Below, piece by piece: positions 1-12,572 of a DNA stretch of 13,748 nt (position 1 is the stretch's first letter; the number at the start of each line of letters is the position of its first letter). This stretch comes from Dehalococcoidia bacterium (GTDB lineage Bacteria > Chloroflexota > Dehalococcoidia > Lucifugimonadales > UBA3495). Location: assembly GCA_030740155.1 (NCBI GenBank), contig JASLXV010000076.1, positions 1 through 13,748 of the forward strand, read 5' to 3'. A program made the translations under genes and the position numbers. Under the pieces are notes generated by a model that did not search any database, had not been told where the DNA came from, and saw nothing but the letters and a program-made list of their open reading frames with translations.

Positions 1-505
1 CGGCGACAATACCTCTGAGCAGCCGCTCGCCGGGTAGCGGGAGCCTTCGAGTGCGTTCTCGCATGGGGCACTACCATCGATTCCGGAGCGTGGAACGCGT
101 GACCATTATCACGGGCCGGTCCGGTTGAACGCACCGCTATAAACGACGCCCTGGTGCCCCTCCCAGCTCCCGGAGACGATGGCCATCGGGCGACCCTGCT
201 TGAACCGGTATTAGTAACCCAAAAGAGGACTGGATCTAAGAGGCCAGCGATGGACAATGAGGCCGTGTTAGTTGCAGGGCGTCCGCATCTGAGCCAGCAA
301 TGGAAACGCCGCCGCCTCTGACCTCAAGTCTGATTAAGAGTATAGGCCGCCGACAACACCTGTTCGTCGCTTGGCCCGCGGAATTTCACCAAGGGGCCGG
401 TCCCACTTGGTCTTTCAACTGTACGAACCAACCGCACGGCCTGGCTATAGGCTCTAGTCACAGAAGATGATTGCTCCCTTGTTCTGATATATCCTCTCTA
501 GGGTG

Positions 506-511
506 TATAGT
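506..511 (+). promoter_or_regulatory. Candidate -10 element (TATAGT) for a leaderless HTH/recombinase transcript
   Basis: TATAGT at 506-511 lies in an AT-rich patch, 6 nt before ATG 518. There is no Shine-Dalgarno before 518 and no clear -35. Confidence 0.35.
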
Positions 512-517
512 AATGGG

Positions 518-736
518 ATGCTACAGGGGTATGCTACCACGAGGCAGGCGAGCGAAAGGTCTGGCATTTCCCAGGCCCATATCAGGCGGTTGATGGAGTA
601 CGGAACACTGGCGGGTCTAAAGGTGGGACGGGACTGGTTGGTGTTGATCACATCACTCGAGTACTACATGGCTAACAGACCGAAGCCAGGTATAAAACCG
701 GGAAGGGGACGCCGTGGCAAACGCGAATGGACATGA
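518..736 (+). CDS. Excisionase-like (HTH_17/MerR-type) DNA-binding protein, candidate recombination directionality factor
   Basis: ATTRQASERSGISQAHIRRLMEYGTLAGLKVGRDWLV fits the Xis-family winged HTH pattern, and there is a basic C-terminal tail. It overlaps the recombinase start. ATG 518 is preferred to GTG 503. Confidence 0.75.
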   Translation: MLQGYATTRQASERSGISQAHIRRLMEYGTLAGLKVGRDWLVLITSLEYYMANRPKPGIKPGRGRRGKREWT

Positions 737-2333
737 TGACCGGCCCATGTCGGCCGCCCTATACGCCAGGGTGAGTACCGATGACCAGCGGGACCGCCAC
801 ACCATTGGCGGCCAGATTGAGGCTCTACGGGGTTTCGCGCCTCACTGGAACATGAACATCGTTGAAGAGTACCTGGACGATGGCATCTCCGGAACCGTGC
901 CATTAGACAAGCGGCCAGCAGGCTCACGCCTGACCGAAGACGCGAAGGCCCACAAATTCGACGTAGTGATTTTCTACCGCCTGGACCGGCTGGCCCGGAG
1001 CCTGCGGACCTTCCTGGACATCGTCGACTTCTTCGAGGAGGTCGGAATAGGGCTCCGGTCCATGACCGAGACCTTTGACACTACTAACCCCATGGGCCGG
1101 TTCGCCATACAGATGATAGCTGCTGTTGCTGAGCTAGAGCGGGGGACAATCATTGAGCGCACCAGCATGGGACGAGCGAGGGTGGCGACCATGGGCAAAT
1201 GGACGGGAGGTGTGGTCCCCTACGGCTACCTGGTCGATGTCGACGGTTACTTGACCCCCGACTGGACCCCGAGGAACGGGTGTGCGTTCTCCGAGGCAGA
1301 GATCGTCCAGCGTATCTTTCGGATGATAGCTGATGAACGTAACTCCGCTATGGCCACCGCCAAACAGCTCAACGACGAGGGCATCCCGATGTGGCGGAAA
1401 TACCATCGCCGTGGTCAGACAGAGGCACAGTACAAAGCGAAGCCTGGGGCATCGTGGTGGCCGACCAACGTAACTCGGATAATCCGCTCCGAGACCTACA
1501 AAGGCACCCATGTCTGGGACGCCAAGGGCCGGAAGATTGAGCGTGAAGTCCCGACCTTGGTTGACGGTGAGATCTGGGAGCGGGCACAGCGGCAGCTCGA
1601 CTCTAACAAGCGCCTGTCGAAACGCGAAGAGGACCACCTGTATCTTCTCCGGGGCCTCGTCCAGTGCTCAAACTGCGGCAGAATGTACGTGGGTTCGCTC
1701 AATACCGCCAAGGGGGGTGATTGGAGGCGCTACTATTACCGATGCGGGTCGCAGCTTGGGGACAAGGCTGGCCGAGAACGCTGCGACGCCAAGGTGATAG
1801 GCACCGATTGGCTTGAGAATTTGGTGTGGGAGGATATAGAGTCCTTCGTGATGAACCCAGGTGGGGTAATAGACAAGCTTCAGGAGCGGATTGAAACGGA
1901 ACTCCAGGCCGCACCTTCCGAGGGCAGGAAGCGTGAGCTACAGCAGGCCATAGCTTCCAAGGAGACAGAGAAGGACCGGCTCCTGGACGCATACCGAAGA
2001 GGGCTCATCGACATCGACGCCCTGGACGCCCACGTTCAGCGGTCCCGGCTAGAGTTGGAGCCACTGCAAAAAGAGCTAGCCAGCATGGCAGCCGCGGACG
2101 CCGAACGTGGTGTGAACATCGGCAAGTTGGCCAATGCCGAGAGTCTGCTCAAAACGCTCCGGGACACAATCCAGGGCACCCTCGATTGGAAAACAAAGCG
2201 CCAGGTCGTAGAGGCGCTGGTGTGGGGTATCTCCGTACACACGACCGGGGAGGGCCGCAAGAAGAAGGCCACAGTCGAGGTTACTTACGCTTTTGAGCCC
2301 ATATTTCATGCTGTAGAAAGCGGCACAGCTTGA
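714..2333 (+). CDS. Large serine recombinase (integrase)
   Basis: Catalytic YARVST and RLDRLAR motifs, AVAELER helix, PYGY, recombinase domain, zinc ribbon (CSNCG...YYRC...C) and coiled coil. The start is GTG 714 (GGAAGGGG upstream) or ATG 747. Confidence 0.95.
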   Translation: MANANGHDDRPMSAALYARVSTDDQRDRHTIGGQIEALRGFAPHWNMNIVEEYLDDGISGTVPLDKRPAGSRLTEDAKAHKFDVVIFYRLDRLARSLRTFLDIVDFFEEVGIGLRSMTETFDTTNPMGRFAIQMIAAVAELERGTIIERTSMGRARVATMGKWTGGVVPYGYLVDVDGYLTPDWTPRNGCAFSEAEIVQRIFRMIADERNSAMATAKQLNDEGIPMWRKYHRRGQTEAQYKAKPGASWWPTNVTRIIRSETYKGTHVWDAKGRKIEREVPTLVDGEIWERAQRQLDSNKRLSKREEDHLYLLRGLVQCSNCGRMYVGSLNTAKGGDWRRYYYRCGSQLGDKAGRERCDAKVIGTDWLENLVWEDIESFVMNPGGVIDKLQERIETELQAAPSEGRKRELQQAIASKETEKDRLLDAYRRGLIDIDALDAHVQRSRLELEPLQKELASMAAADAERGVNIGKLANAESLLKTLRDTIQGTLDWKTKRQVVEALVWGISVHTTGEGRKKKATVEVTYAFEPIFHAVESGTA

Positions 2334-2337
2334 AATA
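2302..2337. other. Putative hybrid attachment site (element/host junction)
   Basis: TATTTCATGCTGT (2302-2314) and ACAGCTTGAAATA (2325-2337) are inverted repeats matching at 12/13, with a 10-bp spacer. ComF-like coding begins at about 2324. Confidence 0.7.
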
Positions 2338-2761
2338 CCGGGGCGTTCGCGCTGCCGCCCCGGAGTTGGGCCGCCTGCTGGCCAAATTTCTGGCCGGCCA
2401 TCCGGCGGCGGGAGAGGTGCTTGTGCCGGTACCGTTGCACCCCCGGCGATACCGGAGCCGCGGCTACAACCAATCGGCGCTGCTGGCCCGGGAGCTGGCC
2501 AAGGTCTCGGGCCTGGCGTTTGAGGAGGGGCTGCTGGCCCGGATCACCAACGCACCGCCGCAGGCCGGCGCGGCCTCCCGGCAGCAGCGGAGGGCCAACG
2601 TTGAGGGAGGGTTCCGGTGCACCGGCGAAGTTCGAGGAATGAAAGTGGTGCTGGTCGACGACGTGGCCACCACCGGGAGCACTCTGTCGGCCGGCGCCGC
2701 CGCCCTCAAGGCTGCCGGCGCCGCCTCGGTCTGGGGGCTGGTCCTGGCCCGGGAAGGCTGA
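2324..2761 (+). pseudogene. comF: 3' part of a ComF-family (phosphoribosyltransferase-fold) competence gene, interrupted
   Basis: HSLKYRG, LVPVPLHPRRYRSRGYNQS, RRANV and the PRPP loop VVLVDDVATTGSTL are present. The N-terminal zinc-finger region is absent and the frame is closed upstream by TGA at 2294-2296. Confidence 0.9.
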
Positions 2762-2801
2762 GGCCCGGATCCGGACCCATCGGGCTGGAAGGAGACCTGG
2801 T

Positions 2802-3782
2802 ATGAAATATGGGTTCACCATCCCGGGAAGCGGTCCTCTGGCCGCGCCGGAGGCCATGGTGGCCGCCGCCAAGCGGGGCGAGGAGTTGGGGTACGACTGC
2901 CTCACGGCCTCCGACCACATTGTTCTGCCCCGTAACGTCGGCTCTTTGTATCCGTACAACCAGCGCCGCGTCCATCCCAGCACCGTGAGCGGCTCCTGCC
3001 TGGAACAGCTTACGGTGTTGTCGTTCTTGGCCGGTCAGACCGACCGTCTGCGGCTGGTTACCAGCGTCATGATACTGCCCCACCGCAATCCCATAATAGC
3101 CGCCAAAGCGCTGGCCACCCTGGATGTCTTGTCTCAAGGGCGCCTGACCGTGGGCGTCGGCGTGGGTTGGATGCGAAAGGAGTTCGAAACCCTGGGGCTC
3201 TCGTATTTCGAGGAGAGGGGCGAGGTCACCAACGAGTTTATCCGGGCGTTCAAAGAGCTGTGGACCAGCGATAATCCTTCTTTCGACGGCCGGTACTGCC
3301 GGTTCTCCGACATCGGTTTCCTGCCCCAACCGGTGCAGAAGCCCCATCCGCCAATCTGGGTGGGCGGGGAAAGCCGCGCGGCCATTCGCCGGGCGGCCCG
3401 GCTGGCGGACGGCTGGCACCCGGTAAGCTCGAGAATCAACCCTCAGTCCGGCGGCCCGGAGCGGCTGGTGGCGAGGATCAGAAGTTTGCGCCTTCAGGCC
3501 GAAGCGGTGGGCCGAAACCCGGACGAGATCGCCGTCATCTACCGGGTCCACGGTTACGGCCTGGAGAACGGCGCGGGCGCGGCGGCATCAAGCAACGGAG
3601 ACCGCCACCCCTTCTCCGGCAGCGCGGACCAGATCGCCTCGGACATCCGCCGGTATGAGGAGCTAGGGGTCAGCCAACTGGTGGTAGACTTCGCCGGTCC
3701 CGGCAGCTCCCGCCGGAGCGATCTGGGGCAGGCATTGCAGGACATGGAGGACTTCGCCACCCAGGTGTGGCCCCAGGTATAA
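2802..3782 (+). CDS. LLM-class (luciferase-like) oxidoreductase, probably F420-dependent
   Basis: SDHIV, LATLDVLSQGRL, GVGVGWMRKEF and PQPVQKPHPPIWVGG motifs; AAGGAG RBS at 2789-2794. Confidence 0.9.
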   Translation: MKYGFTIPGSGPLAAPEAMVAAAKRGEELGYDCLTASDHIVLPRNVGSLYPYNQRRVHPSTVSGSCLEQLTVLSFLAGQTDRLRLVTSVMILPHRNPIIAAKALATLDVLSQGRLTVGVGVGWMRKEFETLGLSYFEERGEVTNEFIRAFKELWTSDNPSFDGRYCRFSDIGFLPQPVQKPHPPIWVGGESRAAIRRAARLADGWHPVSSRINPQSGGPERLVARIRSLRLQAEAVGRNPDEIAVIYRVHGYGLENGAGAAASSNGDRHPFSGSADQIASDIRRYEELGVSQLVVDFAGPGSSRRSDLGQALQDMEDFATQVWPQV

Positions 3783-3855
3783 CCGCCGGCCGCCACGGGA
3801 CACGATACCCGAAACGACAACCTTGGACGGCCGTTTACCTTCGATTGACCCCCGA

Positions 3856-3884
3856 TTGACCCCGGCCGAGGTAGAGAATACAAT
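3856..3884 (+). promoter_or_regulatory. sigma70-type promoter for the SelA-like gene
   Basis: TTGACC (3856-3861), 17-bp spacer, TACAAT (3879-3884). Confidence 0.7.
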
Positions 3885-4027
3885 TGCCCCACCCTTGGCG
3901 GCAGCGCAGACCAGACGCTTTTTCCGGCACATTGCTCCATCCGCCGGAAAGCCCGTAAGTCGATCGGGCTCGATGCCGCCCAGGCGACCGATCTTGTATC
4001 TGATACTTCAACCCTCAGGAGGACCTT

Positions 4028-5164
4028 ATGGCTACCGGCAAGAGAGACCCGGCGGAGGCGTATGGGAGGCTTGGGCTCAAGCCCATCATCGTCGCCACCG
4101 GCGCGACCACCCGGCTCGGCGGGACCAGGACTCGCCCGGAAGTGTTGGAGGTGATGGCCGAAGCCGCCACGGTACTAGTGGACGTGGGCGAGCTGAACGA
4201 TAAAGCCGGGGAGGTCATCGCCCGGCTCACGGGCGCCGAAGCGGGGTTCGTCTGCAGCGGCGCCGCGGGGGGGCTGCTGCTGCAGGCCCTGGCGTGTATC
4301 GCCGGCAGTGACCCGGTGAAGATGCATCGTTTGCCCAATACCGAGGGAATGAAAGACGAAATCGTCATCCAGAACATGCATCGCTTCCCCTACGACCAGG
4401 CGTACCGGGCCGCCGGCGGCAAGCTTGTCGGAGTAGGCGGCGGAAAGCGTTGCCACGGCTGGGAGCTGGAAGGAGCGATCGGCGAGAATACCGCGGCGGT
4501 GGCCTACCTCTGCGCTCCATTGACCGACCGGCGCACGTTGCCCCTTGACGAAGTCTGCGACATCGCCCATCGGCACGGGGTTCCCGTAATTGTGGACGCC
4601 GCCTCGATGCTGCCGCCCCGGAGCAACCTGCGCCGGTACGTGGCGGAAGGGGCCGACATGGTGGTCTACAGCGGGGGAAAGGGGGTCCGAGGGCCCCAGG
4701 GAGCGGGCATTCTCTGTGGGCGGAAGGACCTCATAGCGGCGGCTTCAACCAACGCCAGCCCCAACCAGTTCCTCGGGCGTCCCGCGAAGGTGTCCAAGGA
4801 GGAAATCGTGGGGCTGATCACGGCGTTGGAAATCTTCGTGGATGAGGATGAAGAAGAGGAGACTCGCCACTACCGCCAGCTAGCCCAGCAGGTGGTGGAT
4901 GCCATGTCCGAGTTCCCCGGCTTGGATGTGACGCTGATGCACGACGATTTTGACTACCTGACCCCCAGCGCCGTGATTCGGTTCAACGGGGAGTGGCGTG
5001 GCCCTTCTCGAAGCCAGGTGGCGGCGGCCCTGGAGCAGGGCGACCCCGCCATTCACCTCAATCTACTGGGCCGGCCCGACGAACTGGCGGTGTCGCCGCT
5101 GAACCTGCTGGATGATGAGGTCCCGATCGTGGTGCGCCGGCTTCGAGAGGAGCTGCTGCGATAG
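4028..5164 (+). CDS. SelA-like PLP-dependent enzyme (SelA/DgaE-related, substrate unknown)
   Basis: IVATGATTRLGG, GAEAG..CSGAAGGL, PVIVDAA and the PLP-lysine motif YSGGKGVRGPQ..G; GR..KVSKEEIVGL; AGGAGG RBS. At 378 aa it lacks the N-terminal extension of true SelA. Confidence 0.85.
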   Translation: MATGKRDPAEAYGRLGLKPIIVATGATTRLGGTRTRPEVLEVMAEAATVLVDVGELNDKAGEVIARLTGAEAGFVCSGAAGGLLLQALACIAGSDPVKMHRLPNTEGMKDEIVIQNMHRFPYDQAYRAAGGKLVGVGGGKRCHGWELEGAIGENTAAVAYLCAPLTDRRTLPLDEVCDIAHRHGVPVIVDAASMLPPRSNLRRYVAEGADMVVYSGGKGVRGPQGAGILCGRKDLIAAASTNASPNQFLGRPAKVSKEEIVGLITALEIFVDEDEEEETRHYRQLAQQVVDAMSEFPGLDVTLMHDDFDYLTPSAVIRFNGEWRGPSRSQVAAALEQGDPAIHLNLLGRPDELAVSPLNLLDDEVPIVVRRLREELLR

Positions 5165-6848: not shown

Positions 6849-7117
6849 TTCGACAAGCTCAGGACGAACGGGGGGGAGATCAAGGCGAACGGGAGGGGAG
6901 ACCCGAGCGAACGGACGAGAATCCTCCTCTACCGTTCGTGGTGAGCTTGTCGAACCACCTGGTCAGGTGGAAACGCTCCTCCTCACTGTTCGTGGTGAGC
7001 TTGTCGAACCACCTGGTCAGGTGGGAACACTCCTCCACCGTTCGTGGCAAGCTTGTCGATCCACCTGGTCAGGTGGGAACGCTCCTCCTCACCATTCGTG
7101 GTGAGCTTGTCGATCCA
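6849..7117. repeat. REP/BIME-like cluster: one inverted copy plus four tandem copies of a ~23-bp motif
   Basis: TTCGACAAGCTCAGGACGAACGG (6849-6871) faces CCGTTCGTGGTGAGCTTGTCGAA-type copies in units starting at 6931, 6985, 7037 and 7091 (periods 54, 52, 54). CCACCTGGTCAGGTGG palindromes lie at 6955, 7009 and 7061. Confidence 0.9.
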
Positions 7118-11855: not shown

Positions 11856-12290
11856 ATGCCCGAGGCGCCGGACCTGGAAGTGATCAAAACTTTCCTCAAC
11901 GGCCGGGTGCAACGGCAACAAATCAGCTCCGCCAGGGTGCTGAAGCCCACCGTCCTGCGCTCCCCGGCCGGGGACTTCTCCAACGACATTCAAGGCCGGA
12001 CCCTCAACCTGGTCCATCGCCGGGGAAAGTTCTTGCTGGTCGAGTTGTCTGGGGACCGCTGGCTGGCCATCAATCCCATGCTCACCGGGGCCCTCCAGTA
12101 TTGCGAGTCCAAGGCGCGGGTGTACAAGAAGACCTGCTTCGTTTTGTCCCTGGCCGAAGGCTGGGAGCTACGTTACCTGGATGACCGGCAAATGGGTAAG
12201 GTATATTATGTCAACCAGGCGCAACTGGCCGAGGTGCCCCTCCTGAACGAACAGGGACCCGACGTGCTGGAGGGCATCACCTTCGAGGAG
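11856..12290 (+). pseudogene. Fpg/Nei (MutM-like) DNA glycosylase, truncated after codon 145
   Basis: Catalytic N-terminus MPEAPD, RRGKFL, MLTG, LRYLDDRQMG and GPD are present; the H2TH and zinc-finger domains are missing. The last 12 residues of ORF 11856-12329 come from the inserted element. Confidence 0.9.
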
Positions 12291-12572
12291 TGTAGACCGT
12301 CAGCGATAATGGGACACATCGGGGGGTAAGAAAACCCGAGAGAGGGGAGGTGGCGTGAGCTCCTGGAGTGAAGGTAAAGTACTCACAGAAAGGAGCAGAT
12401 GTGTCCCAGTCAGTAATCAGCAAGGCCCCGGCAGCAGAAGCGCGGACCGAAGAGGCCCAGACCATCGAGAGGCGAAAACGTCATAACCGGACCCTCAGGG
12501 AATTCACTCAAGCTCTCCCACACCTCTGATCTCTTGGGTCCCAAACTGTCCCATTTGTGCTGACTATCTATA
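12291..12572 (+). mobile_element. Miniature non-autonomous IS derivative 1 (IS3/IS481-like ends), 282 bp
   Basis: Left end TGTAGACCGTCAGCGATAATGGGACAC (12291-12317) and right end CTGTCCCATTTGTGCTGACTATCTATA (12546-12572) are inverted repeats matching at 20/27. There is an internal 42-aa ORF at 12401-12529 with an AAGGAG RBS. Confidence 0.75.

Follow-up and report, generated by a model that had tools for sequence, protein, structure and literature searches.

The window analysed here, 13,748 nucleotides in all, is one entire contig (C76) of the source genome, G000. Near its left end a serine integrase gene runs into the 3' half of a comF gene. The 5' half of that gene lies on a second contig of the same genome, C80. 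The features that matter for our argument are the following (positions are those of the window unless a contig is given):

1–303, no strand assigned: one copy of a repeat family, lying within the element where the contig breaks off (70–93% matches on contigs C8, C97, C92, C3, C35 and others)
484–511, plus strand: sigma70-like promoter match upstream of the HTH–integrase pair (9 of 12 consensus positions, a consensus match only)
518–736, plus strand: HTH_17 (excisionase-like) gene (27.2 bits against a cut-off of 27; 25 bits on the TIGR01764 excisionase model, below its cut-off of 28.8)
714–2333, plus strand: large serine integrase, 539 aa when integrated (Resolvase, Recombinase and Zn_ribbon_recom domains, all over the Pfam cut-offs)
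2302–2329, plus strand: element-side (P) arm of the right attachment site, in the last integrase codons (inverted repeat with the arm at the C80 end, 15 of 30 positions)
2324–2332, plus strand: 9-bp shared core, an exact match of both element ends (C80 4070–4062)
2324–2761, plus strand: comF 3' half with a phosphoribosyltransferase-like (PRT) domain and no stop from 2324 to 2761
2802–3782, plus strand: LLM-family monooxygenase gene, the native downstream neighbour, on the host side and outside the element
C80 4328–4062, minus strand: comF 5' half, a double zinc ribbon (profile match to DZR_2, 35.8 bits)

The best genome homologue belongs to a Chloroflexota MAG, and one member of the integrase cluster is labelled Dehalococcoidia. 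Both agree with the Chloroflexota host proposed in the initial annotation. Together with the marine sequencing runs described below and the LLM genes, a SAR202 trait, these labels suggest a SAR202-like bacterium.

The initial annotation described an intact serine recombinase and an adjacent Xis-like gene, abutting a comF 3' part free of stops, as a site-specific element inserted in comF. Our results bear this out, and the comF 5' half, for which it proposed a search upstream, is present too. That half sits behind a NUDIX gene on C80; beyond it, 4.06 kb of DNA unrelated to comF extend to the end of the contig. Rejoined, the two halves give 231 codons plus a stop in one frame, so precise excision would restore the gene. 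The rebuilt protein has an N-terminal double zinc ribbon and a C-terminal PRT domain, which is the architecture of ComF/ComFC (GntX). On TIGR00201 the 3' half scores 78 bits and an intact relative 94 bits, both below the curated cut-off of 233.55; despite these scores, comF and GntX are by far the two best models.

The C80 and C76 flanks are natively adjacent, because a relative (G001) has the NUDIX gene, a comF relic and the LLM gene on one contig. The interior of the element is unassembled because both inner contig ends fall in repeats, and a linkage from C80 to C76 through this interior was not obtained. The element is at least 6.7 kb long. Besides a transposase fragment and a small HTH gene, its C80 side encodes two proteins without a Pfam match, and the assembled part contains no recognisable phage or conjugation gene. 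Rfam gave no match in positions 1–3000, including the repeat at 1–303. Further along the window, an intergenic tandem array (period 54, 3.6 copies) occupies 6922–7117. At 11856–12329 a Fpg/MutM-like gene is cut after its N-terminal domain near 12292 and followed by lower-GC DNA (0.47–0.54); a gene with an H2TH domain lies on C40.

Both comF halves are undecayed in G000. The 3' half differs at 2 of 53 conserved columns and the 5' half at 2 of 20, with 1–8 of 73 in 24 intact orthologues; the deviations of the 3' half are within the range of these orthologues. Between G000 and G001, dN/dS is 0.32 for the comF 3' half, 0.26 for comEC and 0.13–0.21 for six neighbouring or housekeeping genes (pairwise values, not assignable to one lineage). 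The initial annotation explained the undecayed 3' half by either recent insertion or selection for restoration. We keep the first explanation, recent insertion.

The 9-bp core shared by the element ends has about 0.007 expected occurrences by chance in a 30 × 30 window. A join at about 2320–2325 had been predicted to restore the frame. The frame is indeed restored, and the position needs correction: the core is 2324–2332, and the crossover dinucleotide is TT at 2330–2331, the first two bases of the Leu codon in the comF H-x-L-K-Y motif. Centred there, the reconstructed attP shows its greatest symmetry (15 of 30 positions, a value that 0.7% of random genome centres reach; ten centres were tried). 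A second relative, G007, carries an independent insertion. Its arm matches that of the window as an inverted repeat over 13 consecutive positions, and it pins the crossover, because it leaves the host sequence directly after the equivalent CT. All comF insertions examined cut at CT or TT. Attachment sites of about 50 bp, a common central dinucleotide and inverted-repeat attP arms are typical of large serine integrases. When we searched 203 genomes for the arm pattern, exact matches were returned in G000 and G007 only, both of which had been used to build the pattern; the remainder stayed at the level of the reversed control.

The catalytic serine (S21) and the four zinc cysteines of the integrase are invariant in 25 homologues. 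With its three domains, the protein has the full build of a large serine recombinase (LSR). The HTH_17 protein encoded next to it is a candidate regulator or directionality factor. In L085, L086 and L158, the gene directly upstream of the integrase is a homologue with 69–73% identity; in L083/L084, L044 and L045, this place is taken by a different gene. A complex prediction for the integrase's C-terminal part and the HTH protein scored 0.00, which counts for neither side. Sigma70-like matches number two, with 0.5 expected in shuffles.

The stop codon of the integrase (2331–2333) straddles the crossover and is created by host bases. The predicted attP falls within the integrase gene, so that translation from the circle would go on for 31 codons of the left element end and give a protein of 570 aa. 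P0006 is a natural 570-aa protein that ends in a homologous tail, and it is sister to the comF-linked P0004 (100/100 in the tree). The left ends of G007, L045 and L044 are likewise open for 27–37 codons in this frame only (joint chance about 0.03). The tail frame is thus open in all four left ends examined, and the other two forward frames close early. Past the tail, DNA identity drops to background. Within it, pN/pS is 0.74 in frame and 0.62 in the +1 frame, which is no clear protein-level signal. In the predicted structure of P0006 the core is confident, and the tail (residues 528–570), which lacks alignment depth, has a pLDDT below 50 and one short strand. Tail searches gave nothing new, either in the protein database or in 401 genomes of the order (five weak matches). 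The tail may have a function; the accessible part of PMC12286644 raises a blocking role for C-terminal extensions.

This layout is that of DsiB, the integrase of the Dehalococcoides ssrA islands. As described in the accessible part of PMC3146451, DsiB is also a Dehalococcoidia serine integrase of about 540 aa whose 3' end overlaps the att site, and it was proposed to be complete perhaps only on the circle. In contrast to the integrase here, DsiB has ssrA as its target and is accompanied by DsiA, ParB and Mom genes; the present clade splits protein-coding genes, has an HTH_17 partner and includes a long-form homologue on record (P0006).

Tyrosine integrases with an att site within an element gene are known from Mx8 and BPs. 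In the archaeal "suicidal" integrases of SSV1, pTN3 and pT26-2 (PMC8371274, accessible part), the att site also lies inside an element gene and integration changes the protein. However, these are tyrosine recombinases that are cut into inactive halves, whereas integration here leaves the three LSR domains whole and removes no more than a short tail.

Related integrases (61–67% identical) sit at the same comF codon in both orientations. Among nine metagenome loci whose integrase is at least 55% identical, this element accounts for three. Another three, from two elements (L083/L084 and L085), abut a comF 3' half at the same codon. Of the rest, L082 abuts a comF 5' half in reverse, one locus has a GlcG-like gene split, and one stops short of the junction. 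Same-codon insertions are seen in the DNA of G001, G007, G180, L083/L084, L085 and, in reverse orientation, L082. The initial annotation had asked whether homologues also lie beside split comF genes, and these do. Judged by their protein tails, P0004 (E = 7e-9) belongs at comF too, as does P0009 (E = 2e-4), and P0003 (E = 2e-8) apparently uses a different position in comF. The same comF codon is kept by at least five integrase branches. In L083/L084 the comF 3' half has a stop six codons past the site.

Other members of the clade split an FdhF-like gene (L043), a GlcG-like gene (L044/L086), an SDR-like gene (L049) and the target of L045 (labels assigned by eye). These non-comF users are interleaved with the comF users in a tree of 38 rows. 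Beside 71 distant metagenome integrases (33–42% identity) and 80 integrases of viral contigs, no comF was found within the flanks examined. The L044 and L045 elements carry ArdC. In G003, the 7.2-kb element that splits the GlcG-like gene also holds a paralogue of it that is intact, and in addition a second tail-like copy, which contains a stop (L044:8800–9400).

comF is matched in 178 of the 203 genomes of the host family, and of the 150 matches listed, 147 are near full length. Of the three findings that would have refuted the initial annotation (no 5' half, relatives with a naturally short comF and no recombinase, or rejoined halves out of frame), none turned up. A close integrase is present in 3 of the 203 genomes. 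At least 4 of the 178 comF-positive genomes (G000, G001, G007 and G180) bear a mark of insertion in comF, and three of these four are relics without a full integrase. The count is a lower bound, since it comes from a follow-up of G001 and of the genomes with several matches among the 150 of 192 matches listed. G000 has the complete insertion, with both halves and the full integrase. In G001 the first 11 codons of comF are joined to the last 33 of the integrase; the 5' half is lost, as is most of the integrase gene. G007 has the left junction and, 3.4 kb on, a full comF, rebuilt by a 268-bp, 99.6% identical copy of the 5' half downstream of that junction (L041:2081–6235). G180 holds a right-junction relic and a separate intact comF. 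An element kept with an intact recombinase across the host lineage, as skin-type elements are, is not what this distribution shows.

Ten further genomes with double or weak comF matches were considered as insertions. Eight proved to be frameshifts, contig ends, longer linkers or full-length genes, the second match of G204 is a distant PRT gene, and G180 alone is an insertion relic. A comF fragment in G003 was rejected as a split as well. There, a 1.09-kb tandem duplication joins the comF 3' end to an N-terminal integrase remnant behind an intact comF (L040:7374–9556).

The occupied form is present in 20 marine runs from 13 studies (15 flagged as possible sources). For the empty site, we compared contigs of 4 of the 20 runs with positions 1–4500 of the window. 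Two of the four, X7 and X17, contain comF with its 5' half directly before 2324. The X7 contig has one difference over 2324–4500, and the 21 letters before 2324 are identical to the comF 5' half of G000; this extent is probably what a 31-letter graph would give if the 5' half is common to the empty and the occupied allele. In X17, which is not among the flagged sources, two contigs show the empty site, one probably from a variant strain. In X3 a contig breaks at 2324 with a 30-base overlap, and X1 has the occupied junction only, read through. Contig depths (14 versus 9 in X7, 17.7 versus 14.8 in X3) are not taken as allele frequencies. Empty alleles exist, and contigs cannot tell excision from cells that were never occupied. 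Of the two junctions by which mobility was to be recognised, the empty site was found; a junction of the circle was not among the loose ends listed for the four runs.

The element is apparently not confined to comF. The 90% cluster of the integrase has 12 members. One of them, P0129, is identical to it over residues 1–539, and P0128 differs at one residue. Both run on into 22 residues that G000 encodes element-free on contig C79 (47958–47887), across TT. Read from these protein tails rather than from DNA, the identical integrase appears to occupy a second, non-comF site in other assemblies. Together with the empty alleles, this site points indirectly to recent mobility and to an integrase that is probably active. 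In G000 this empty target lies between sortase-like and grdB-like genes (labels assigned by eye).

Integrases that target competence genes are already known. The accessible parts of three papers name comM, comK, the comG operon and the comEC family as LSR targets, with competence the most enriched target class (PMC10083194); comYC, comFA, comK, comM and radC (PMC4774983); and comYC, comC, comGA, pilB, pilQ, comFA, comEC, comM, ssbB and comK, including the interruption of comK, with comF only as an sRNA target (PMC12378983). The terms "comF" and "comEA" have no match in PMC10083194 and its eight supplement files. In the portions of the literature returned by our searches, neither comF/comFC nor any SAR202 competence gene was described as the site of an integrase element, and the accessible parts of PMC13626063, PMC12884075, PMC10995628 and PMC13663708 held nothing bearing on these questions. 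As a target, comF/comFC, and as a host, a SAR202-like bacterium, are apparently unreported. Our element resembles the known ones in its site-specific integration inside a conserved transformation gene, on which unrelated integrases converge (here comF, comEA and comM). It differs in its target, since comF/comFC (DZR plus PRT) is a protein distinct from the comFA helicase, and in its host, an uncultured marine Chloroflexota for which transformation is unproven.

We think it probable that this is an active, selfish LSR element that inactivates comF while integrated. The integrase would recombine the attP of the element with attB at the Leu codon of the H-x-L-K-Y motif. Integration would part the zinc-ribbon half from the PRT half, and no ComF would be made. 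ComF function would be lost because both domains are needed in H. pylori ComFC, which is required for natural transformation (PMC9005727, accessible part). Precise excision would rebuild comF as a by-product of the recombination chemistry. Populations hold occupied and empty alleles; the circle would encode the 570-aa enzyme with its 31-residue tail, and the integrated copy encodes 539 aa. The preference of the clade for comF most likely reflects a known strategy of mobile elements, which disable natural transformation to avoid being cured, and the element would benefit accordingly. The core with its in-frame join, the empty alleles, the signs of recent movement, the relatives at the same codon, decay after insertion (G001 and the stop in L083/L084), the enrichment of competence genes among known targets and hits of unrelated serine integrases on comEA and comM count for this reading. 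Against it count that the clade also splits genes without a role in competence, that natural transformation has not been demonstrated in these bacteria, that PilB is rare, that the loose ends listed include no circle junction, that the second site is read from proteins, and that the element ends lie on different contigs of a bin with 7.65% contamination.

The other competence genes of G000 give a mixed picture. comEC (820 aa) and dprA are intact, two pilin genes are present, and comM is a long frame that stays open up to where its contig ends. A second serine integrase, unrelated to the first (502 aa, 23% identity) and with its own HTH gene, splits comEA (C37:47299–49633 and C105:396–580); this split has a 7-bp core, a symmetric att site, an in-frame join and an intact integrase. 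In G007, a third serine integrase splits comM (L046:7100–8864). On contig C93 of G000 (51147–51326 and near 40800) the pilB–pilC–pilin cluster is deleted mid-contig, leaving about 60–70 pilB codons, and the archaellum-like fla cluster present in G009 and G022 is missing at the syntenic place. No PilB was found in G000. G001 has a similar pilB remnant and broken comEC and dprA genes, and no comM was found in it. A PilB-type ATPase is present in 20 of the 203 family genomes, compared with 178 for comF. Therefore the lack of PilB does not single out G000, and we dropped pilB loss as proof of dead competence. Most of the host family keeps comF without a classical uptake pilus.

Alternatively, comF could simply be a conserved landing site. 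In this case the gene would be conserved yet dispensable (uptake lost, or comF with a minor role), and insertions in comF, comEA and comM would be cheap rather than selected for blocking transformation. The pilB deletions and the broken competence genes of G001 fit such an account. So does the clade's use of genes unrelated to competence, interleaved with comF in the tree, and the second site of the identical integrase. However, G000 keeps comEC, dprA, both pilin genes and an open comM, the near full-length comF genes of the family point to selection on comF, and at least five integrase branches stay on the same codon. We regard this account as less likely.

Elements with a serine integrase beside a split gene, precise excision and a host-controlled trigger are known from SPbeta in spsM and the Listeria comK prophage. 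The initial annotation suggested that the comF element, too, may gate competence reversibly, as an alternative to blocking it. As a switch taken over by the host, the element would rebuild comF, and perhaps comEA would be rebuilt as well, by regulated excision, and competence would come on for a time. The intact comF halves and integrase, the in-frame join, intact integrase and symmetric att site of comEA, the empty alleles identical to G000 in X7, the wide occurrence of the occupied form and the rebuilt comF beside the relic in G007 would all suit a switch. Yet the insertion is not fixed in the lineage, in the sister species the loss of the 5' half is permanent, the element also moves to another site, PilB was not found in G000, and no host-controlled directionality factor was identified. 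Sporadic presence, relics, polymorphism in the same seawater populations and the second site fit a selfish element or a neutral, cheap site better than a domesticated switch, and we consider the switch quite unlikely. The skin element in sigK (C. difficile CD1231 and CD1234; PMC5025042, accessible part) shares with ours a serine integrase beside half of a split gene and an excision that restores the frame. In contrast, skin has a host-controlled excision trigger and is needed for a developmental step, while the comF element occurs sporadically, varies within populations, has often decayed, is present at a second site and has no known excision trigger.

A bolder proposal is doubtful in our view. 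The circle-only tail of 31 residues would cover the directionality-factor site on the zinc domain, and integration would remove it. SAR202-like deep-ocean populations would then be mosaics with respect to DNA uptake, and competence would return only once the precisely excisable elements stacked in comF and in comEA had both left.

An assembly or binning artefact, with halves from different organisms or a chimeric contig, is suggested by the separate contigs, the contamination of the bin and the repeats at both inner contig ends, but is extremely improbable and largely refuted, as the integrase–comF junction recurs in two other assemblies (L079 and L080), X1 and X3 bridge it, X7 contains the predicted join, G001 has the same synteny, and the att arms are complementary.

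With a selfish LSR element in comF, the known conflict of mobile elements with natural transformation would reach a new target, comF/comFC, and a marine lineage that is abundant but uncultured. Since an attB/attP pair is defined and public seawater data contain both alleles, reads could show directly what share of comF and comEA is intact. The natural pair of a short and a long integrase, finally, may be used to test whether recombination takes its direction from a circle-only tail, as was proposed for DsiB in 2011.
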